Assembly (NCBI GenBank): GCA_964450175.1
Contig: CAYVHH010000199.1
Span: forward strand, 1 to 35,018
DNA length: 35,018 nt
DNA from: an uncultured bacterium
GTDB taxonomy: Bacteria; Methylomirabilota; Methylomirabilia; Rokubacteriales; CSP1-6
Reading direction: 5' to 3'
Numbering within the stretch: the first letter of the stretch is position 1; each line of letters opens with the position of its first letter. Of the stretch, positions 1,134 through 24,328 are shown piece by piece. Position numbers and translations under genes: made by a program. The notes beneath the pieces are model-generated. The model was given only the letters and a program-made list of their open reading frames with translations, did no database searches and was not told where the DNA came from.

Positions 1134-1367
1134 CGTCGACCCCCTGGTGTGTGATGGTTGATCCGCTGTGATCTGACCTGAGGGAGCATCGGCCGTGCCA
1201 GTGGTCGACCGCTGCGAAGTGTCCGTCGTACTTGATCTGCGTCCGCCGAGCGAGCCGGCGGGTCGACGGCCTGGGGGGGAAGAACTACCGGGTTGTAGGG
1301 AAAACCTACAACGTGAAAAGAAGTACTGGCGAGCGTGAAAAAACTACAGGGTCACGGCGAGGCCGAG

Positions 1368-1949
1368 CTACTCGGCGAGCGCCCGAAAGGGCGGCGGCTG
1401 TCCCTCCCTCCAGCGGTCGGGCACGATGCCGAACGCCTCGATGAAGCGCTGCCATCCGCCCGCGAACGTGATGGTCATCCCGAGATCGATGATCTCGTCC
1501 TCCGAGAAATGCGCGCGCAGCTCCGCGTAGAACGTCGGATCGACGACCGGGTGCTCGGCGGAGAGCCGGTCCGCCAGACGGAGCGCGGCCTTCGTGCGGT
1601 CGGGCAGATCGGAACGCTCGTAGTCGGCGAGCTTCGAGACCAGATCCTCCGTCGCGCCTCGGCGCACCGCCGAGGAGGAACGCGCGAGGCTTCAGTGCAC
1701 GCACTGGTTGTTCCAGGCGAGCTTGACGCGGACGAGCTCGAACAGCTCGGGCTCGACGCTCGACCCACCGCCGTAGATGTAGCGAATGAATCCCCACGTG
1801 GCCTCGAGAAGGCCGGGCCGACGCGCCATCGTCAGGAAGAGATTATCGTCTTCGTAGGCGTTCCGGTACCACCGCCCGAGCATCTCCTGGAGCGACTCGC
1901 TCAGCTCCTCGCGCCGCGCCTTCGGAAGGAGACCACGCTCGTTGGCCAT
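1368..1949 (-). CDS. Carboxymuconolactone decarboxylase (CMD)/AhpD-like redox protein with an in-frame UGA (candidate selenocysteine) at 1692..1694
   Basis: ATG at 1949 lies 5 nt after AGGAGGA. ORFs 1692..2228 and 1368..1667 share a frame. The joined product reads ...LVRVKLAWNNQCVH[TGA]SLARSSSAVRRGATEDLVSKLADYERSDLPDRTKAALRLADRLSAEHP...FSEDEIIDLGMTITFAGGWQRFIEAFG. That matches the CMD/AhpD-core layout, with TGA at the second Cys of CxxC. Confidence 0.6.
1645..1691 (-). promoter_or_regulatory. Candidate bacterial SECIS stem-loop immediately downstream of the in-frame UGA
   Basis: The mRNA reads UGA A GCCUCGCGCG UUCCU CCUCGGCG GUG CGCCGAGG CGCGACGG AGGA. There is a perfect 8-bp upper stem (1657..1664 pairing with 1668..1675) and an apical loop GUG (1665..1667) starting 24 nt after the UGA. 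Additional lower-stem pairing is possible. Confidence 0.5.
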
Positions 1950-2046
1950 CAGGTCCTCCTGCGCTCTCGACTGGTCGTGCGCGCTGCAGGCCGTCGCGGG
2001 GCGGGGGCCCCGCCGGCCGAGGCGCGCCTCTCGATGATCGCGCCGC

Positions 2047-2409
2047 TCAACGTCGGGGAAGGAGGCGCGACGTCGCGTCGCGCTGGTCCGCCGACCGACC
2101 GGGATCGCGGCCGCGTCTGGAGCGCGCGTCGAGACGGGCGGCATGACGGTGGATGTCACGCAGCAAGAGCAGCACCTGGCCGCTGATCGCGAGCGATCCG
2201 CCGAGGACGATCGCGACCGCGACGCCACCGATCGCGGCCGGCGCGAGGCGCGATCGCCACTCGGCCGGCACCCGCGCGACGATCTCGGCCGGCCACGGCG
2301 AGAGCACGGCGAAGGCGGTCAGCGCGGCCGCAAAGATGATCAGGCAGCCTGCGACCATCTGCACGAGGGCCAGGATTCTCAGGACGCTGTACCGCCGAGC
2401 TCCTGCCAA
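2047..2409 (-). CDS. Small two-TM membrane protein (hypothetical)
   Basis: TTG at 2409 lies 6 nt after AGGAGG, and that SD overlaps the TAG stop of the upstream lipoprotein gene. Hydrophobic segments are LRILALVQMVAGCLIIFAAALTAFAVL and APAAIGGVAVAIVLGGSLAISGQVLLLL. GC3 is high in this frame. Confidence 0.6.
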   Translation of the reverse strand: MAGARRYSVLRILALVQMVAGCLIIFAAALTAFAVLSPWPAEIVARVPAEWRSRLAPAAIGGVAVAIVLGGSLAISGQVLLLLRDIHRHAARLDARSRRGRDPGRSADQRDATSRLLPRR

Positions 2410-8698: not shown

Positions 8699-8798
8699 AA
8701 AACTTCGAGGCATACGCGCGTCGGCGGGCGCCGGCGTCGAATCTCGCGGAACAGGCTGGCACGCCGGTGACAAATATCGGTGCTCGCGCGCGCTGCGG

Positions 8799-9605
8799 CT
8801 ACTTCGGCCAGCGGGGCGAGGAGAGCTCGACTCGCCAGATCGGCCCGTTGACGAAGAACGGGCCTTCGAACTTCACGAATGCCGGCGGGGTGCCGCCGAG
8901 GACCCAGAACTTCAGATCGGGCGGCTCCTTTCCCGCGACCTTCGCGAACACGCCGGCGACGCCGCCGACCTCGAGATCGATGAGATACCGGGTCGCGCTG
9001 CGGCGCGCGTCGCCGACGATGATGGGATCCTGGCCTTGCGGCTGCATGGTCGTCTTCACCAGCCGAGGCTTCGGCGTGAAGGCCACGAGGTGCCCCGTGG
9101 CGATCTCGTCTTTCGTCAGGTTGTTCAGGATCGTCGCGGTCATCCCGTTGTAGACGTCCGGCGGGAGCTCGAGCGTCCCCGAGAACTCCTCGGTTTCTTT
9201 CTTGCCCTTCTCGCGTTGCTTGACCTCGTAGCGATTCGGCTCACGCGTGAACGCGACCTCGACGTCGGCCGGAAACGACGGGCCCCGCTGGATCTGCTTG
9301 TAGCTGAGCAGCTTGAGCACCGGCCGCTGCAGGTAGGTGACGGACTCGTCCTGGAGCGAGCCGTCGCGGAACCGCCACACGAAACGGCTCTCCATCCGAT
9401 CATCGTGCGCCAGCGCAGTCAGCTCGCCGTGCGCGAGCGTCTGGCCCTGAAGCGAGCGGAGGATGAGGAAGCCGTGTGTCTCGCCCTCGGGATAGCGCAC
9501 CGTCACGGGATCCGCCGTGGCGGCCGTCACCGTGATCACGATCAGCGACCAGACCCGGATCGCAGGGCGGAGCAATGTCCGAGGCAGCGAGTGCCGGCGC
9601 CGCAC
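8799..9605 (-). CDS. Secreted hypothetical protein
   Basis: 268 aa with a signal-like N-terminus (RVWSLIVITVTAATA). The sequence is balanced and non-repetitive with good codon bias. It starts 16 nt after the AOR stop. No family was recognised. Confidence 0.7.
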   Translation of the reverse strand: MRRRHSLPRTLLRPAIRVWSLIVITVTAATADPVTVRYPEGETHGFLILRSLQGQTLAHGELTALAHDDRMESRFVWRFRDGSLQDESVTYLQRPVLKLLSYKQIQRGPSFPADVEVAFTREPNRYEVKQREKGKKETEEFSGTLELPPDVYNGMTATILNNLTKDEIATGHLVAFTPKPRLVKTTMQPQGQDPIIVGDARRSATRYLIDLEVGGVAGVFAKVAGKEPPDLKFWVLGGTPPAFVKFEGPFFVNGPIWRVELSSPRWPK

Positions 9606-9621
9606 GACCGATGTGATCCGT

Positions 9622-11445
9622 TCAGCCTCGGAGGCCGAGCACCGACAGTCGTCCGGCCGTCGGCACGCCGTCGGCGTCCCAACCGCGCAGCGCGTAGTAG
9701 TCGTCGAGCATCGCGGCGAGCTCGGTCGGCGGACAGTACATGCCCGCGGAGGGCCCGTCCGGTATCGGCTCGTGCATCACCTTCCACGGCAGCACGTCCT
9801 GGGCCCGCCGCACGCCCTCGCGCACGTTGAAGAGCCGCTCGAGGTTGATGATGCGCTCGCCCACGCGCTCGAGCTCGTCGACGGTCACGTCCCAGCCGGT
9901 GACGGCGCGTACCATCGTGGCGTACGGATCGCCGATGAAGACGCCGAATCCGCGCTCGGAGGTGAAGCGGCACAGGACGAGCGAATCGCCGAGCGCGGTG
10001 AAGTGCTGGCTCCGCACGGCGAACGCGGGCTTGTCTTTCGTGCCGCGCCGATCGAAGCCCTGCGCGTACTGCGGTGTCGGCCGCGTATCGTGATGGCTCC
10101 CACCGCGGGTCGCGGTCGCGTAACCGATCGAGAGCCCCTTGAGCGCGCGCGCCGAGTGCGCGGGTAGCTCCAGCCCCTTCACGGCGTACACGAGCTTCGT
10201 GCCGTCGGGATGGACGGACGCGGCGAGCCGCCACGCGCCCTCGGCCACGCGGGTGCCGAATCCTTCGCGGCGCGCCGTCATCTCCACCAGCTTCAGCATG
10301 CCGCGCCAGTCACCCCAGCCGAACGGCACGCCCACCTCGCGCGCGTCGAGCCACCCGCGCTCGAGAGCCTCCGCCACGAACGCCAGGGTGACGCCGATCG
10401 AGATCGTGTCCATTCCGTAGAGGTCGCAGAGATCGTTGGCCAGGATGAGCGCCTCGGGATTCGAGATGCCGAGCATCGGCCCGAGCGCGAAGATCGTCTC
10501 GTACTCGGGCATCTTCGCCCTGGTGCCGGCGAACTCGCCCTCGACGATCCCGTACTGCTTGCCGCACGCAACCGGGCACTTGAGACAGGTCGTGTCGCGA
10601 TCGTGGTAGTGAAGCTTCATCTCCTCGCCGGAGATGACGCGCGCCTCGGCGAACGTTTCCTGGCGCAGGTTGTAGGCGCCGAGGCCGCCGAGGGCGTTGA
10701 TCGGCCCGACGAGAAACGGCGTGCCGAAGGTCGTGAGTGCCTTGGTGCCGGTCTTCAGGGGCTCGCGCGTGCCGTCGATGAGCGCCTTGAGCCCCGCGGC
10801 ATCGGCGACCTCGGTCTTGCGGGCGCCCCGGACCACGACCGCCTTGAGATTCTTCGAGCCCAGCACGGCGCCGATCCCGCCGCGCCCCGACACGCCCTCG
10901 CGGTTCTTCCAGTAGTGGGCCATCGCCGCGAACCGCACGCGATGCTCGCCGGCAGGCCCGATCGCGATCGCATCCGCGTCGGCGCCTTCGGCGTCGATCA
11001 GCGCGTTCACGGTCTCGCGCGTCGTTCGGCCCCACAATTCGGGCGCCCGCTTCACCGTCGCGCCCGTCTCGGTCACCAGGAGGTACGACGGCGCCGGCGC
11101 GCGTCCGGTGATCGCGACGGCGTCGAAACCGGTGCGCTTGAGTGTCGCCGGGAAGCGGCCTCCGAACGTCGAGTCGAAGAACAGGTTGGTCAGGGGGGAT
11201 TTGGTCGCGACGCACGCGCGGCTGTTGCCGGGCACCGTCGTGTCGGTGATCGGGCCCACGCCGAAGACGACCGCGTTTTCGGCGTCGAACGCGTCGATCC
11301 CGGGCGGCACGTGGTCGTAGAGCACGCGAGCCGCCAACCCGTTGCCGCCGAGGAGCGCGCGCGCGGTGGTCTCGTCGAGCGGCTCGACGCGGGCCGTCCC
11401 CGCCGTCAGATCGACGAACAGCAGGCGGCCCCCGTAGCCCTTCAC
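9622..11445 (-). CDS. Aldehyde:ferredoxin oxidoreductase family (tungstopterin enzyme)
   Basis: 607 aa. The N-terminus YGGRLLFVDLTAGTARVEPLDE..ARALLGGNGLAARVLY is typical of AOR. CLKCPVACGK is the CxxCxxxC 4Fe-4S motif. The GTG start at 11445 overlaps the upstream stop as GTGA. Confidence 0.9.
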   Translation of the reverse strand: MKGYGGRLLFVDLTAGTARVEPLDETTARALLGGNGLAARVLYDHVPPGIDAFDAENAVVFGVGPITDTTVPGNSRACVATKSPLTNLFFDSTFGGRFPATLKRTGFDAVAITGRAPAPSYLLVTETGATVKRAPELWGRTTRETVNALIDAEGADADAIAIGPAGEHRVRFAAMAHYWKNREGVSGRGGIGAVLGSKNLKAVVVRGARKTEVADAAGLKALIDGTREPLKTGTKALTTFGTPFLVGPINALGGLGAYNLRQETFAEARVISGEEMKLHYHDRDTTCLKCPVACGKQYGIVEGEFAGTRAKMPEYETIFALGPMLGISNPEALILANDLCDLYGMDTISIGVTLAFVAEALERGWLDAREVGVPFGWGDWRGMLKLVEMTARREGFGTRVAEGAWRLAASVHPDGTKLVYAVKGLELPAHSARALKGLSIGYATATRGGSHHDTRPTPQYAQGFDRRGTKDKPAFAVRSQHFTALGDSLVLCRFTSERGFGVFIGDPYATMVRAVTGWDVTVDELERVGERIINLERLFNVREGVRRAQDVLPWKVMHEPIPDGPSAGMYCPPTELAAMLDDYYALRGWDADGVPTAGRLSVLGLRG

Positions 11446-14420
11446 CGCCCGAGGTCTTTCAGTCCCTTGCGGGCCTTCTCGAGGACGTCGGCGGGCGCGT
11501 CCTTCTGCGCGATGAGCTTGTTGTAGACGATCGCGGCCGAATCGTTCTGCTTGAGGGCGGCCAAGCAGGCTCCGGCACCCAGCAGCCCGCTTCGTCCGGC
11601 CTGCGTGTCGGGCGCGACGTACGCCGCCGTCATGAAGTACTCGGCGGCGGCGAGATTCTCGCCCTCGCCCTGATACGCCTCACCGATGCCGATGGCCGCG
11701 GACGCGACGATATTCTTGTCGTCGCTTCGAAGCAGGCCCTCCAGCAGCTTGCGGGCCTCCGGCCCGCGCTTTTCCTGCGTGAGCACCCGCGCGTAGCCGA
11801 GCGCCATCTCCGGTCGCAGGTCGGCGGGATTCGCGTCCTTCAGCGCCCGGGTGTAAGCCTCGAGCGCGCCGGCGCGGTCGCCGGCGGCGTCACGCGCGCG
11901 AGCCAGCGCGCCCCACGCGCGCTGCGCGCGGGGATCGGTCGGCGATGTCGAGACGAATTGCTCGAGCACCGGGCGGCCGGCCTCCGGCTTTCCGGTTTCC
12001 ACCAGCGCCTCGGCGACCGTCACGCGGGCTGGCTCGAGGAATGGGCTCTTGGGATAGAGCTTTTCCATCAGGCCGTACGCGTCGATCACCGTGGGCCACG
12101 CGTCCCCCGCCGCGGCGCCGGCGCCGACGCGCTCGAGTGCGTCATCGGCGGCCTCGTCGGACGGAAACTCGGACGTGAGCCGCTTCGCGGTCGCGAGCGC
12201 GCCGGGCCAGTCCTTCTCGTCGACGGCGATGGCGGTCAGGACGTAGAGCAGTCGCGGCGCCGAGCGCGCCTTCGGGGCCTGGGCCAGGGCCGTCTGCGCC
12301 GGCTGCTTGAACTCCTTTGCGTCGCCGCGCTGGAAGGCGACCACCGCCAGCCCGTAGCCCGCGACCGCCGCGACGTCGGCCGTCCCGCCGTCGCGCGCCT
12401 CGGTGAACCTGGTCTGCGCCTGGGCCCACTGGCTCTCGGCGAGCGCCGTGGCGCCGAGGCCCAGCTGAGCCAGCGGACCGATGCCCTCCGCCTGCGCCCG
12501 CTTGAAGGCCGTCCCCGCTTCGGTCGGTCGCCCGGCGGCCAGGAGCGCGGCGCCGAGTGCCGCCTGCGCCCGACCGATGAGCGGCGGAAACGGCGCCCGT
12601 CTGATCCAGTCGCGCAGCGGCGCCTCGGCGCCGGTCGCGTCGCCCATCCGCAGCATGAGAATCGCGCGATTGAGCCGCGCGAAGTCCGTTCGCGGCGCGC
12701 TCGGGAAGGTGTTGATGACCCGATCGAGGAGCTGGCGGGCTTCCTCGCGATCGGCGTCCCGCCGGACCGCGAGCTCGGACGCGAGCTCGAGCGCGTCCGG
12801 CGCGCGAGGATCCCCCGGCATCGCCTGCGCGAACTCGAGAAACTCTCGTCGCGCGTCCTCCAGTCGGTCATGGCGCATCAGGGACCACGCGAGCCCCAGC
12901 CGCGCGGACGGCGCCTGCGCGTGCCCGGGGACGTCGGTGAGCACGCGCCGGAACGCGGCCGCGGCCGTCACGTGATCGCCCGCGTAGTACGCGGCCTCGC
13001 CGCGCAGCAGGAGCGCCGCGACGCGCGCGTCGGGCGACGGAGCGCCCGACACGACAGCGGGGAGATCGCGCACGGCCTGGGCGTATTCGCGCAGCTCGAA
13101 GTTCGACTGGGCCAGACGATACGACGCGTACCAGCCGGTCGGGCTCGTCGGCTCCATGCGCTGCGAGAGCTCATACTGCGTGCGCGCTTCGTCGCGGTTG
13201 CCGGCGAGCCGATAGCCCTCGCCCTTCAGCAGGAGCACGTGCGCGCGGATCGAGTTCGTGAGCGTGGCGCTCAGCAGCTCCTGCGTGAGCCCCGGCACCT
13301 CCGCCGGCTTCTTCGCCTCGATCATGGCCCGCGTCAACCGGATCTGGAGCGGAACGACGAGCGGCGAGCGACGCCCTTCGAGGCCGCGCAGCATCCCTCG
13401 CGCGGCGTCGGGATCGGTCGGGAACAGCGCCAGCGCAAGGCCGGCCTCGACCCAGGGGCGCTCCGGACCGTTGCCCTTCGGCGACGTGAGATACGCGCGA
13501 AACGCCGCCACGCTCTCGGGATAGCGCTCGGCGGCGAGGCTCCACCAGCCGAGCCGCGCCCGGCCCGAGTCGAGCAGCGGGTGCGGTCCGCCCTGCACGA
13601 ACTGGGCGAGCGTGGTGATCGCACGGTCGTACTGCCCGATGCGCCCGAGCGCTTCCCCGAGCCAGAACAAGACGTCGCGGGCGAGCGTGGCGGGTGCGCG
13701 GGGCGCGAGCGCCGTCCACGCGGCCACCGCGTCGTCGTGGCGTCCGAGCGCGTAGTTGGCGAGCCCCAGTCCGTGGCGTGCCCAGGCCTCGAGCTCCGGC
13801 GGCGTCGCCGACTGGAACTGCGCGAACGTGTCACGCGCGCGGTTCATGTCGTTGAGCCGGAGCGCGGTCCAGCCGCTCGAGTGCTGGCTCCAGACCGTAA
13901 AATCCGCGGTGCGCGGCCCGCGGGCCACCTGCCGGAAGAGCGCATCGGCCTGCTGGATCCGATCGAGCCGGTAGTAGGTTTCGGCCAGCCAGTAGCGCGC
14001 CTCGGTCAGGAGGTCGCGCTCCTTCCCGCGACGTACGGCGCCCTCGAGGTCCTGGACGGCGTCGTCGAGCTCGCCCTTGGCAAAGTGCGAGCGGCCGCAC
14101 TCGAGCGCCTTCGACGCGATCCCGAAGGCGGCGCCGACGCACGCGAGCGTCCCGGTCGACGTAATAGGCGCCGTGGGCTTGGGTGCGGCCGGCGTGACGA
14201 TCGCGGCCAGCGGCAGCGCCGGCAGCTCCGAGGGCGATGGCGGCAGCGGCAGGTCGGCGACCGCGATCGGAGGCTTCTCGATCGGCGCTTCGGCGAACGG
14301 AACGAGCTGCGCGATGTCCGGCGGCGGCGGCGTCAGCGGTAACACCGTCGCGGCCGGCGCCGTTCCCGGCCACCCGACCAGCGCCGCGAGCGCCACGACT
14401 GCCGAAAGGCGGCGCCTCAC
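11442..14420 (-). CDS. Large exported tetratricopeptide-repeat protein (992 aa)
   Basis: The GTG start at 14420 overlaps the upstream TGA as GTGA. The N-terminus [24 protein letters not shown] is signal-like and is followed by a Pro-rich linker. More than 800 aa of TPR-like A/L/Y/W-periodic helices follow (ARYWLAETYYRLDRIQQADALF, and others). Confidence 0.8.
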   Translation of the reverse strand: MRRRLSAVVALAALVGWPGTAPAATVLPLTPPPPDIAQLVPFAEAPIEKPPIAVADLPLPPSPSELPALPLAAIVTPAAPKPTAPITSTGTLACVGAAFGIASKALECGRSHFAKGELDDAVQDLEGAVRRGKERDLLTEARYWLAETYYRLDRIQQADALFRQVARGPRTADFTVWSQHSSGWTALRLNDMNRARDTFAQFQSATPPELEAWARHGLGLANYALGRHDDAVAAWTALAPRAPATLARDVLFWLGEALGRIGQYDRAITTLAQFVQGGPHPLLDSGRARLGWWSLAAERYPESVAAFRAYLTSPKGNGPERPWVEAGLALALFPTDPDAARGMLRGLEGRRSPLVVPLQIRLTRAMIEAKKPAEVPGLTQELLSATLTNSIRAHVLLLKGEGYRLAGNRDEARTQYELSQRMEPTSPTGWYASYRLAQSNFELREYAQAVRDLPAVVSGAPSPDARVAALLLRGEAAYYAGDHVTAAAAFRRVLTDVPGHAQAPSARLGLAWSLMRHDRLEDARREFLEFAQAMPGDPRAPDALELASELAVRRDADREEARQLLDRVINTFPSAPRTDFARLNRAILMLRMGDATGAEAPLRDWIRRAPFPPLIGRAQAALGAALLAAGRPTEAGTAFKRAQAEGIGPLAQLGLGATALAESQWAQAQTRFTEARDGGTADVAAVAGYGLAVVAFQRGDAKEFKQPAQTALAQAPKARSAPRLLYVLTAIAVDEKDWPGALATAKRLTSEFPSDEAADDALERVGAGAAAGDAWPTVIDAYGLMEKLYPKSPFLEPARVTVAEALVETGKPEAGRPVLEQFVSTSPTDPRAQRAWGALARARDAAGDRAGALEAYTRALKDANPADLRPEMALGYARVLTQEKRGPEARKLLEGLLRSDDKNIVASAAIGIGEAYQGEGENLAAAEYFMTAAYVAPDTQAGRSGLLGAGACLAALKQNDSAAIVYNKLIAQKDAPADVLEKARKGLKDLGR

Positions 14421-16501: not shown

Positions 16502-17851
16502 GTGGAGCTCTTCGCCGAGTCCGACCGGGGCACGGGCGCTCCGCGCCCGCCGGCGCCCCTCGCCGACCGGATGCGGCCGCGCTCGCTCGACGAGATCGTC
16601 GGCCAAGACCACCTTCTGGGGCCGGGGCGCGTCCTGCGCGCGGCGATCGAGACCGGCGAGCTCCACTCGATGATCCTCTGGGGCCCGCCGGGCTCGGGGA
16701 AGACGACCCTCGCGTCCCTGATGGCGAGCGTGACCGGCGCCCGCTTCGTCGCGTTCTCGGCGGTTCTGTCCGGCGTCAAGGAGATCCGGGAGGTGATCGC
16801 CGAGGCGGAGCGCGAGGGGACGCGACGCGGGACCCGCACGATCCTGTTCGTCGACGAGATCCATCGCTTCAACCGCGCCCAGCAGGACGCCTTCCTGCCG
16901 CACGTGGAGAAGGGCACGGTCGTCCTGGTCGGCGCCACGACCGAGAATCCGTCGTTCGAGGTGAACTCGGCGCTCCTGTCGCGCTGCCGCGTCTACGTAT
17001 TGAGAGCGCTCGAGGACGACGATCTGCTCGCGATCATGCGCCGGGCGCTCGCCGAGGGCGCGCGCGGCCTCGCCGCCCTGCGCCCGGAGGTCACCGACGA
17101 CGGGCTGCGCTCGATCGCGCGCGTGGCCAACGGCGACGCGCGGGTCGCCCTGAACGTGCTCGAGGTGGCCGTCGCGCTCGCACCGGCCGGCGGCGGGCAG
17201 CGGCGCATCACCGACGCGACGATCCGCGAAGCCGCGCAGCGGCGGACCTTGCTCTACGACAAGTCGGGCGAGGAGCACTACAACCTGATCTCGGCGCTCC
17301 ACAAATCGCTGCGCGATTCGGACCCCGACGCCTCGCTCTACTGGCTCACGCGGATGCTCGAGGCCGGCGAGGATCGTCTCTATATCGCGCGCCGGCTCGT
17401 GCGCTTCGCGTCCGAGGACGTCGGCAACGCCGACCCCGGCGCGCTCACGCTCACGCTCGCCGCGAAGGAGGCGTACGACTTCCTCGGCGATCCGGAGGGC
17501 GAGCTGGCCCTCGCGCAGGCGACGCTCTATCTGGCGCTCGCGCCGAAATCGAACGCCGTGTACGTCGCCCACAACGAGGCGAAAGAGGACGTGGCCCAGC
17601 GGCCGGCCGAGCCGGTTCCCCTCCACATCCGGAACGCGCCGACGCGGCTCATGAAGGACATCGGCTACGGCGCCGGCTACCAGTACGCCCACGACGCGCC
17701 GGATGCGCGCGTGAGCCAGGAGGATCTGCCGGAGTCACTTCGCGGACGGCAATACTATCGTCCAACCGACCGCGGGCTCGAAGCCGAGCTCGGACGGCGG
17801 CTCGCCGAGTGGCGGCGCTGGCGCTCGGAGCGGCAACGCCCTAGGGTATAG
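16502..17851 (+). CDS. rarA: Replication-associated recombination protein A (AAA+ ATPase)
   Basis: [16 protein letters not shown], Walker [12 protein letters not shown], Walker [12 protein letters not shown], and the C-terminal MgsA domain ([30 protein letters not shown]). Confidence 0.93.
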
Positions 17852-17854
17852 ACC

Positions 17855-18301
17855 ATGTGGCCGCTCAATCTCCTCAAGCGGCGCCACTGGATCTTCCTCG
17901 GGGCCTGCGTCCTCTTCCTTGCGTCGTATTCAGGTTTCATCAGCTGGGGCAAGGTCGCCCAGGCGCTCGAACGGCTCGCCGATCAGCCGGCGGTGCGCGA
18001 GCGGTTCGCAACGCCGATCGGGCGCGGCGAGGCGATCGTCACCTCGTTCATGTTCGTCCTGCTGACGCCGCTGGCGATCGCGGCCGCGCTCGGTATCGTC
18101 GCGTTCCTCGGCGCGATCGGCGCCGGCATCCTCAGGGCGGTCCTGCCGCTTCGTGATGTGCCGGACTACGTGTTCCTGACCATCGCGTATGCCGGCGTTT
18201 CCATCGGCATCTGGCTCGCCCGCGGCTACTGGACCGGACCCGCCTGGGAATTCGTCGGCCTCATCGCCAAGGCCATCCTCATCGCGACCGGACCGGCCTG
18301 A
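17855..18301 (+). CDS. Membrane protein (hypothetical, about 4 TM)
   Basis: 148 aa and strongly hydrophobic (WIFLGACVLFLASY, SFMFVLLTPLAIAAALGIVAFLGAIGAGIL, FLTIAYAGVSIGIWL). It starts 3 nt after the rarA stop. Confidence 0.7.
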   Translation: MWPLNLLKRRHWIFLGACVLFLASYSGFISWGKVAQALERLADQPAVRERFATPIGRGEAIVTSFMFVLLTPLAIAAALGIVAFLGAIGAGILRAVLPLRDVPDYVFLTIAYAGVSIGIWLARGYWTGPAWEFVGLIAKAILIATGPA

Positions 18302-23407: not shown

Positions 23408-24328
23408 TCAGGTGACGATCAGGGGGTTCGCGTCGGTGACGACCCGGGTCTGCTTCGCGATGCTCTTGCGGATGAACTTCGGCAGGCTGAAGGCGTGCTG
23501 ATGGGTCACGCCGTCCCAATACTCGAGGGAGCCCTTGATGCGCTCGGCGATGAGCTTGTCGACGGCCTTGACGTCCTGCTTGTTGGGGTCGACCTTCTTC
23601 GAGGCGACGATGAACCCCCACGGCGTGCCAAAGCATGAGACGAAGGTCTGATACCCGGCGACGATGGGAAACACCTCGCGCAGGGTCCGATGGATCGACG
23701 TGAAGAAGGCAAGCTCGCCGCGCTTGGTCATCCCGGCCTGCATGGACATCGTGCCGCCAGGTGTGAGCCGATCTCGCACGAGGGTGTAGAACTCCCGGGT
23801 GAAGAGCATGCAGGCGGGGCCTTCCTCGAGCGGCTCGACGAGATCGATCGAGATGAAGTCGAACCGCTCCTTGCTCTTCTCGAGATAGCCACGCGCGTCC
23901 TCGTTCCGCACCTCGGTCCGGGGGTCGTCGAACGCGCCCTGATGCATTTCCGGCAGGTGCGTCTTGCAGAGCTCGACCACCTCGCCGTCGATGTCGACCA
24001 TGACGGCTCGGGTGATGGAGGGGTATCGGAGGATCTCCCGGAGCGTGGCGCCTTCGCCGCCGCCAATCACCAGGGCGCTGCGGGGCGCTGCTTCGGTCGC
24101 CAGGAGGCCCGGGTGGACCAGCGCCTCGTGGTAGATGAACTCGTCACCCTGGCTGGACTGGATGCGCCCGTCGAGGACCAGGGTCTTGCCATAGGACGCC
24201 GTCTGGAGAATCTCGACGTGCTGGAACTTCGTCTGGGCCTCCACGATCGTCTTCGCGATGGCATGCATATGCCCCTCGAAGGTGGTCGTGGTCTCGATGA
24301 ACCACTTATGGGACTGCGAGTTGATCAA
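23408..24328 (-). CDS. speE: Polyamine aminopropyltransferase (spermidine synthase)
   Basis: WFIE...YGKTLVLDGRIQSSQGDEFIYHEALVHP, and the SAM/dcSAM site VIGGGEGATLREILRY...VDIDGEVV. The TTG start overlaps the speH TGA as TTGA. Confidence 0.92.
   Translation of the reverse strand: MINSQSHKWFIETTTTFEGHMHAIAKTIVEAQTKFQHVEILQTASYGKTLVLDGRIQSSQGDEFIYHEALVHPGLLATEAAPRSALVIGGGEGATLREILRYPSITRAVMVDIDGEVVELCKTHLPEMHQGAFDDPRTEVRNEDARGYLEKSKERFDFISIDLVEPLEEGPACMLFTREFYTLVRDRLTPGGTMSMQAGMTKRGELAFFTSIHRTLREVFPIVAGYQTFVSCFGTPWGFIVASKKVDPNKQDVKAVDKLIAERIKGSLEYWDGVTHQHAFSLPKFIRKSIAKQTRVVTDANPLIVT

Follow-up and report, generated by a model that had tools for sequence, protein, structure and literature searches.

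An AhpD-like gene interrupted by an in-frame TGA

The DNA analysed here is a 35,018-nt contig stretch (CAYVHH010000199.1, assembly GCA_964450175.1, lineage Rokubacteriales CSP1-6), hereafter called the window, which carries on its minus strand an AhpD-like gene of the carboxymuconolactone decarboxylase (CMD) superfamily with a TGA inside its frame. A mechanical list of open reading frames (ORFs) gives this gene as two pieces of the same frame, 1692..2228 and 1368..1667, separated by the TGA at 1694..1692 and by eight sense codons up to the GTG at 1667, where the ORF caller starts the second piece. Read from the ATG at 1949..1947 to the TAG at 1370..1368, the frame is broken solely by this TGA and counts 85 codons, the TGA and 107 further codons (193 in total). 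The single frame with an in-frame TGA that a first-pass annotation of this DNA had proposed is hereby confirmed. Around the redox motif the joined product reads ...LAWNNQ-C83-V-H-[UGA]86-SLARSSSAVRRGATE.... We consider it very likely that 1949..1368 is one gene, coding for a 193-residue AhpD-like thiol/selenol oxidoreductase with selenocysteine (Sec) at residue 86. The features of the locus are collected in Table 1.

Table 1. Features of the AhpD-like locus in the window
Feature	Position	Strand	Remarks
AhpD-like selenoprotein coding sequence (predicted)	1368..1949	minus	single frame; 193 residues MANERG...CVHUSLAR...FRALAE, then TAG
Shine-Dalgarno-like AGGAGGA	1954..1960	minus	read from sequence; putative function; 4-nt spacer to ATG 1949
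Glu71 codon	1737..1739	minus	invariant in alignment A2; 12 residues before Cys83
Redox motif C83-V84-H85-U86	1692..1703	minus	C83, H85 and position 86 invariant in alignment A2
UGA codon 86	1692..1694	minus	predicted Sec; Cys homologues have the second Cys of C-x-H-C here
SECIS (selenocysteine insertion sequence) hairpin CCUCGGCG-GUG-CGCCGAGG	1657..1675	minus	8-bp stem; seven pairs, 1675..1669 with 1663..1657, conserved
GUG, apical loop of hairpin	1665..1667	minus	codes Val95; not a start codon

The start of the gene is set by its relatives. The N-terminus MAN[ED]RG, which corresponds to ATG 1949, is common to all homologues, and because all of them begin there, the long N-terminal extension that the mechanical ORF gains from GTG 2228 (1950..2228, minus strand) is spurious. 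The first-pass annotation had seen AGGAGGA 5 nt upstream of this ATG; the motif is present, at one nucleotide less. At the other end, the C-terminal "fragment" is called from GUG 1667, and fragments in the databases open with VS/VR-RGATE or MS/MR-RGATE; the stretch of eight codons from the UGA to this GUG is kept as protein across loci. The halves are publicly annotated as "hypothetical protein" or as fragments of an "alkylhydroperoxidase family enzyme". It had been expected that such a locus would normally be annotated as two fragments, and public entries do split the gene.

Cysteine homologues and conservation on both sides of the TGA

Among 5.8 billion protein clusters searched, 291 relatives were retrieved, and their composition is given here for the best 120 clusters. 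Thirty of these are full-length (~190-230 residues), and all thirty carry C-x-H-C with Cys at the TGA column; those that were aligned are 44-68% identical to the window protein. Eleven clusters are N-terminal pieces that end exactly at ...C-V-H, whereas 76 are without the C-x-H motif, and the aligned ones among these are C-terminal pieces starting at the downstream GUG or AUG. This pattern is the signature of a selenoprotein family split by gene callers. The last three clusters translate UGA as Gly. They are public predicted proteins (P0031, P0037 and P0074; CVH-G-SLARS...) that were evidently called under a genetic code in which UGA means Gly, a separate annotation artefact of the same gene.

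When one genome for each GTDB species was scanned, 80 loci were obtained. Codon 86 is TGA in 75 of them and TGC in the other five, all from Pseudonocardia; this 75:5 ratio is not an unbiased estimate of Sec to Cys forms, since the list was ranked by similarity to a Sec-form query. Counting also an ENA contig (L001), the TGA is found in 76 loci besides the window. The frame stays open in the TGA loci, where the sequence before and after this codon is retained at identities as low as 46%. The genomes concerned are labelled as Rokubacteria/Methylomirabilota, Binatia, Acidoferrum, Acidimicrobiia and other Actinomycetota, Chloroflexota, Desulfobacteraceae, Dormibacterota, Eisenbacteria, Entotheonellaceae, Verrucomicrobiia and Deferrimicrobiaceae. 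It had been claimed that the TGA stands at the second Cys of the CxxC motif, and an alignment of Cys homologues to the TGA column had been named as a check. The claim held on every count, with Cys at that column in 30/30 full-length clusters among the best 120, TGA in the 76 other loci and TGC in five.

In the clade of 29 sequences to which the window belongs, the ratio of nonsynonymous to synonymous substitution rates (dN/dS) comes to 0.20 over the 80 codons ahead of the TGA and to 0.26 over codons +14..+98 beyond it; therefore both halves are translated and under selection. These values bear directly on the possibility of a pseudogene, in which a nonsense mutation or an assembly error would truncate the product at residue 85 and leave decaying sequence downstream. 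Such a view agrees with the way in which ORF callers and public annotation handle the halves as separate fragments. Yet the same TGA occurs in 76 independently assembled genomes or contigs, and the 85 codons downstream, at the dN/dS of 0.26 just given, show a GC content at third codon positions (GC3) of 0.89 with no frameshifts or stops. Moreover, an 85-residue product would be left without half of a single-domain fold and without the second redox residue. With purifying selection acting on both sides, pseudogene, sequencing error and decay are therefore all excluded; this rival is effectively refuted by conservation, and we give it next to no credence.

A conserved hairpin downstream of the TGA

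The hairpin that follows the UGA places its GUG loop exactly 24 nt from that codon. Folded alone, the 19-nt hairpin reaches -13.9 kcal/mol (z = -4.0), and none of 200 dinucleotide shuffles was as good. In clade A (the clade of the window, 36 sequences), RNAalifold gave a 7-bp stem with the consensus CCUCGGC-N-GUG-N-GCCGRGG, in which 100% of the sequence-pair cells are paired and compensatory changes occur at two pairs (U-G/U-A/A-U at one, C-G/G-U at the other). The eighth, loop-closing G-C pair is common to 4 of the 35 clade-A relatives only, the consensus loop being N-GUG-N, and a conserved lower stem was not recovered in the RNAalifold consensus structure of this clade. Thus, of the hairpin first described, the perfect 8-bp stem with a GUG loop 24 nt from the UGA stands at 1675..1657, while its supposed extension by lower pairing finds no counterpart in the consensus.

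A second version of the hairpin was found in clade B, a distant clade of 41 sequences, with the consensus GCGCAUC-GUU-GRUGCGC. It has a 7-bp stem and a GUU loop, lies four nucleotides nearer the UGA (20-nt spacing) and folds at -9.4 kcal/mol. Pairing is kept in 97% of its cells, and compensatory changes have affected three pairs (A-U to G-C in four sequences, G-C to U-A/U-G in five and C-G to U-A in two). In both clades, the covariation score was reached by none of 500 column shuffles, and when the 3' arm was slid by 1-3 nt as a register control, pairing came to 14-55%. Two different hairpin sequences hence serve the same orthologous UGA. The published rules for bacterial SECIS (bSECIS) elements ask for a loop of 3-9 nt, an upper stem of 4-16 bp, a G in the first two loop positions (G[G/U]N), a spacing of 16-37 nt between UGA and loop and a minimum free energy of at most -7.5 kcal/mol (PMC13188914). 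All these constraints are satisfied by both hairpin versions and, together with the covariation, they sustain the earlier description of the hairpin as SECIS-like.

Suppressed synonymous change is a further sign that selection maintains the hairpin. Synonymous diversity is ~0 in the stem codons +6 to +10 and +12 and high in codons +4 and +5, which directly precede the stem. Of 167 sliding windows, the one with the 13 codons that follow the TGA ranks third lowest in synonymous diversity, and the lowest one overlaps it. The synonymous rate (dS) is 0.32 across the hairpin region versus 0.69-0.79 elsewhere in the gene. At the protein level, TGA forms keep the peptide that follows the UGA as S-L-A-R-S-[SA]-S-[AL]-[VM], whereas the Pseudonocardia Cys forms have S-A-V-T-S-R-A-A. 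In two Cys-form genes of the distant clade that have a similar peptide (C-V-H-C-S-L-V-[KR]-S), the stem is lost (n=2).

The same region allows a split gene to be weighed, in which translation would stop at the UGA, the C-terminal half would be made from GUG 1667 and the two polypeptides would assemble. In fact, a GUG or AUG lies at or beside this position in all Sec-form loci and is used by gene callers. However, no purine-rich ribosome-binding site precedes GUG 1667, the upstream sequence being UCCUCCUCGGCG, and the GUG itself forms the apical loop of the conserved hairpin. In addition, the intervening peptide S-L-A-R-S-[SA]-S-[AL] is conserved with a dN/dS of 0.14, and the Cys homologues are single chains. 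A split at this point would also cost the protein its second redox residue. A split gene is therefore extremely unlikely, and a continuous protein read through the UGA remains the preferred reading.

Family and fold

With Cys in place of the stop, the joined protein matched the Pfam family PF02627 (CMD/AhpD) over residues 46-106 with 28.2 bits against a cut-off of 23. The NCBIfam models gave lower matches relative to their thresholds. TIGR01926, "peroxidase-related enzyme", scored 39.5 bits, below its cut-off of 81.8, in an end-to-end alignment of residues 8-177 with model positions 3-175; the best NCBIfam match was NF053654, "YciW-related (seleno)protein", with 45.6 bits over residues 39-174, below its cut-off of 310. 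Judged by these scores, the window protein belongs to a clade that is divergent relative to TIGR01926. Among solved structures, the family profile came closest to 2PRR (E = 1.3e-15), with the C-L-Y-C cysteines of the latter aligned to C-x-H-C.

The fold was inspected through an AlphaFold model of P0002, a Cys orthologue 67% identical to the window protein. The model has a mean predicted local distance difference test (pLDDT) of 88.6 and a predicted template modelling score (pTM) of 0.84, and forms a single all-helical domain that spans the TGA position. Since this position lies mid-domain, an 85-residue truncation product would be no folded unit. Superposition gave template modelling (TM) scores of 0.73-0.77 to 2PRR, 3C1L, 2PFX and the Deinococcus radiodurans AhpD 6K40; for 2PRR the TM score is 0.76, with a root-mean-square deviation of 2.7 A over 187 columns. 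The predicted structure of the orthologue shows the window protein to be a member of the AhpD-core fold family. The CMD/AhpD membership assigned to it at first sight is corroborated twice, by PF02627 above the gathering threshold and by this superposition.

Probable selenocysteine decoding in the lineage

TGA terminates 17 of the 23 coding-like ORFs of the window, which therefore uses the standard genetic code. In contigs of relatives, other genes were found with TGA at known Sec positions. UGSC-family genes with an in-frame TGA at D-U-G-S-C lie at L009:4984(+),15652(-), L011:8707(+),19528(-), L012:12008(+), L015:8645(+), L018:4350(+),8202(-) and L022:2807(+); they matched NF041046 with 128.8 and 138 bits (cut-off 125) as well as PF24696. 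In five Rokubacteria loci, all of one subclade, the AhpD-like gene is preceded on the same strand, at ~1.3 kb, by a UGSC copy, hinting at a loose clustering of selenoprotein genes; the window itself holds no UGSC selenoprotein gene. Similarly, PrdB/GrdB-like genes with TGA in LLVP[TS]-U-PVCHQ (UxxC) were detected at L063:12787(-), L069:9590(+), L070:14830(-), L074:16280(-) and L075:6632(-), less than 10 kb from the AhpD-like gene in Methylomirabilota and Actinomycetota contigs. Their PF07355 match is 27 bits, and their TIGR04483 match, 90 bits, stays below the cut-off of 300. Because the contigs of relatives carry these UGSC and PrdB-like genes with in-frame TGA, the Rokubacteria/Methylomirabilota lineage very probably decodes Sec. 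A Methylomirabilota metagenome-assembled genome (MAG) with 63 predicted selenoprotein genes was listed in a 2026 review (PMC13188914), and Sec-type [NiFeSe] hydrogenases have been reported for Methylomirabilota (PMC13582414). We infer that selA, selB, selC and selD are present in the source genome of the window.

The UGA could also be recoded as something other than Sec. A selC-like tRNA(Cys) is known to insert Cys at UGA in some bacteria; near-cognate read-through could place Trp or Cys, and a reassigned code could give Gly or Trp. The three database entries with Gly at the UGA point in this direction, and no Sec machinery lies in the window to speak against it. On the other side, a reassigned code is excluded, since TGA is the ordinary stop for most window genes. 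A SECIS-type hairpin in keeping with every bSECIS rule is conserved in TGA forms alone, and the related contigs hold the UGSC and PrdB-like genes just described, with TGA at a known Sec position. Recoding to another amino acid is accordingly very unlikely, and Sec is retained as the predicted residue at position 86.

The window is otherwise an ordinary chromosomal region. Among its products are a diacylglycerol-kinase-like protein, a response regulator, a GH15 glycosidase, an aldehyde:ferredoxin oxidoreductase, MgsA, Ddl, Maf, an S-adenosylmethionine decarboxylase, an agmatinase and an alanyl-tRNA synthetase. It is colinear over ~11 kb, at ~81% nucleotide identity, with a contig (L004) of a "Candidatus Rokubacteria" MAG. 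The best-conserved stretch with L004 and L002 is 8795..11785, at ~87% nucleotide identity. At 9622..11445 (minus strand) this Rokubacteria-like chromosome has a full-length tungsten-type aldehyde:ferredoxin oxidoreductase (AFOR_N 226 bits, AFOR_C 386 bits). Between MgsA (stop at 17851) and Ddl (ATG 18338), a 149-codon frame on the plus strand (17852..18301), with a GC3 of 0.89 and no Pfam match, ends at a TGA in the reading frame of Ddl and probably represents a small unannotated gene. Apart from the AhpD-like gene, the only in-frame TGA of the window with 50 open coding-like codons on each side is at 23408 (minus strand). This second selenoprotein candidate (23408..23410, ...PLIVT-TGA-VPPTMAAQRGIGLIILVVLA) was rejected, as it resembles a stop followed by the in-frame start of a small membrane protein, without a Cys context.

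Proposed mechanism and points against it

By analogy with the established bacterial Sec pathway, a ribosome reaching the UGA at 1694..1692 would meet the hairpin at 1675..1657 inside the ORF, which would recruit SelB-GTP-Sec-tRNA(Sec). Sec would be inserted at codon 86 in place of termination, and translation would run for 107 more codons to the TAG at 1368. The product most likely goes through a selenenylsulfide redox cycle, as its likeness to the AhpD family suggests, in which a selenol/thiol pair would alternate with the selenenylsulfide while reducing a peroxide or an oxidised partner protein. A role as attacking nucleophile, which the second Cys has in Mycobacterium tuberculosis AhpD, would suit a Sec in this place. 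The M. tuberculosis active site consists of Cys130-Ser-His132-Cys133, with Glu118 and His137 taking part in the proton relay (PMC3141380). Four of these five relay residues would have their counterparts in Glu71, Cys83, His85 and Sec86, Glu71 being the presumable equivalent of Glu118 by its spacing to the first Cys.

The fifth residue is the exception. At +4 from the second Cys the window protein has Arg90, where some Sec forms carry Lys and Cys forms carry Thr, so that the complete proton-relay site of M. tuberculosis AhpD and PA0269 (Glu, Cys-x-x-Cys and the +4 His) is not found here, the +4 His being absent. Both Cys and the +4 His are invariant in the six AhpD-like crystal structures that were compared (PMC3141380). 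Coupling to AhpC finds no sign in the gene order either. Each gene family beside the AhpD-like gene recurs in at most 11 of the 82 loci. Peroxiredoxins are absent both from these families and from the Pfam-scanned genes of the window, and there is no linkage to ahpC. A promoter and terminator scan of 1150..2350 found nothing.

Several observations weigh against the Sec-containing AhpD-like enzyme proposed here. With the +4 His replaced by Arg, the AhpD mechanism may not transfer unchanged, and clustering within +/-5 kb at the 82 loci revealed no conserved gene neighbour that could point to a partner or a substrate. As for the hairpin, its 71-nt context has z = +0.4, no better than shuffles of this 70% GC sequence, in which good folds are common, and fold energy alone is therefore not convincing. 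Similarly, the fold energy of 33 nt does not cleanly separate Sec from Cys forms in 70% GC sequence (mean of -13.0 kcal/mol for Sec forms, -8.7 +/- 3.5 for controls and -6.8 to -14.2 for Cys forms). The covariation comes from few independent events, namely 3 cells in clade A and 11 cells in clade B. Rfam gave no match at the locus, whether the window was scanned at gathering thresholds or 1550..1800 at E <= 10, the only match being a tRNA-Val; this null carries no weight, bacterial SECIS elements being too variable. Finally, ARAGORN found no tRNA-Sec in the window and 60 loci, and tblastn with Escherichia coli SelA, SelB and SelD gave no match in the window or in 1.23 Mb of sequence flanking the gene in relatives. 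The sel machinery genes are evidently not linked to the AhpD-like gene, and since they need not be, their absence from the window and flanks is uninformative rather than negative.

Relation to known selenoproteins

It was noted from the start that AhpD-like/CMD selenoproteins with CxxU form an already known class, and three published sources agree. CxxU AhpD-like (COG2128) and CMD-domain selenoproteins were reported from the Sargasso Sea in 2005 (PMC1088965). In the Global Ocean Sampling (GOS) data, AhpD-like 1 (299 sequences) and AhpD-like 2 (70) were among the most abundant selenoprotein families (PMC2398784). The 2026 review lists TIGR01926, PF02627, NF041238 and NF041047 as models for AhpD-like/CMD selenoproteins (PMC13188914).

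The AhpD-like 1 selenoproteins of the Sargasso and GOS surveys (COG2128, TIGR01926-type) resemble the window protein in their CxxU, their length of ~180-200 residues, their all-helical core and a bSECIS element directly after the UGA; moreover, the JGI name of the window homologues is "alkylhydroperoxidase family enzyme". The window protein differs from them in its score under the TIGR01926 cut-off and in the missing +4 His, and while AhpD-like 1 is known from marine plankton, the clade of the window belongs to lineages of soil and groundwater (Rokubacteria, Acidimicrobiia and others). With the CMD-domain selenoprotein "AhpD-like 2", compared by description only, it has PF02627 and CxxU in common. 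NF053654, the YciW-related (seleno)protein, is likewise a Sec/Cys family of the AhpD superfamily, of which the window protein is not a member by score.

Among the characterised or solved relatives, M. tuberculosis AhpD has the same C-x-H-C form, a Glu 12 residues before the first Cys and a helix-turn-helix active-site core. In the window protein, Sec stands for its Cys133 and Arg90 for its His137, and there is no ahpC neighbour. 2PRR, a Ralstonia "uncharacterized peroxidase-related protein", is the closest solved structure by profile and by fold, its CxxC aligning with C-x-H-U; at 22% identity, however, it is a Cys protein with the canonical C-L-Y-C-V-V-A-H. Like the window family, 2PRR, 3C1L and 2PFX have a single core domain. 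The CMD fold also hosts other thiol chemistry, for example that of the debrominase Bmp8.

Perhaps the window protein stands for a distinct, mainly Sec-using AhpD subfamily with E-x11-C-x-H-U and without the otherwise invariant +4 His, lying below the cut-offs of the NCBIfam models that it matches, widespread in terrestrial Rokubacteria/Methylomirabilota, Acidimicrobiia, Chloroflexota and other phyla, fragmented in nearly all annotation and, given its altered active site and the missing ahpC partner, possibly serving a chemistry other than AhpC reactivation. We put this forward tentatively and regard it as a possible, on balance somewhat doubtful, extension. If it is true, the chemistry could be that of a stand-alone selenol peroxidase, or of a reductase or dehalogenase like Bmp8.

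For the present, the window gene is best classed among the AhpD-like/CMD selenoproteins, as a member that is new or, at any rate, uncurated. Selenoproteins of this kind and the SECIS hairpins inside their ORFs have been textbook material since 2005; the modest points of interest are the active-site variant without the canonical His, the two hairpin sequences for one orthologous UGA and the UGSC gene near the AhpD-like gene in one Rokubacteria subclade. The finding is thus a sound annotation correction that brings no new mechanism. Its reach goes beyond one contig, as this gene and dozens of orthologues are publicly stored as two meaningless fragments, and a few entries give the UGA as Gly. Methylomirabilota have recently been credited with the largest predicted bacterial selenoproteome. 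The corrected annotation recovers a redox enzyme and adds it to the selenoproteome of Rokubacteria/Methylomirabilota.

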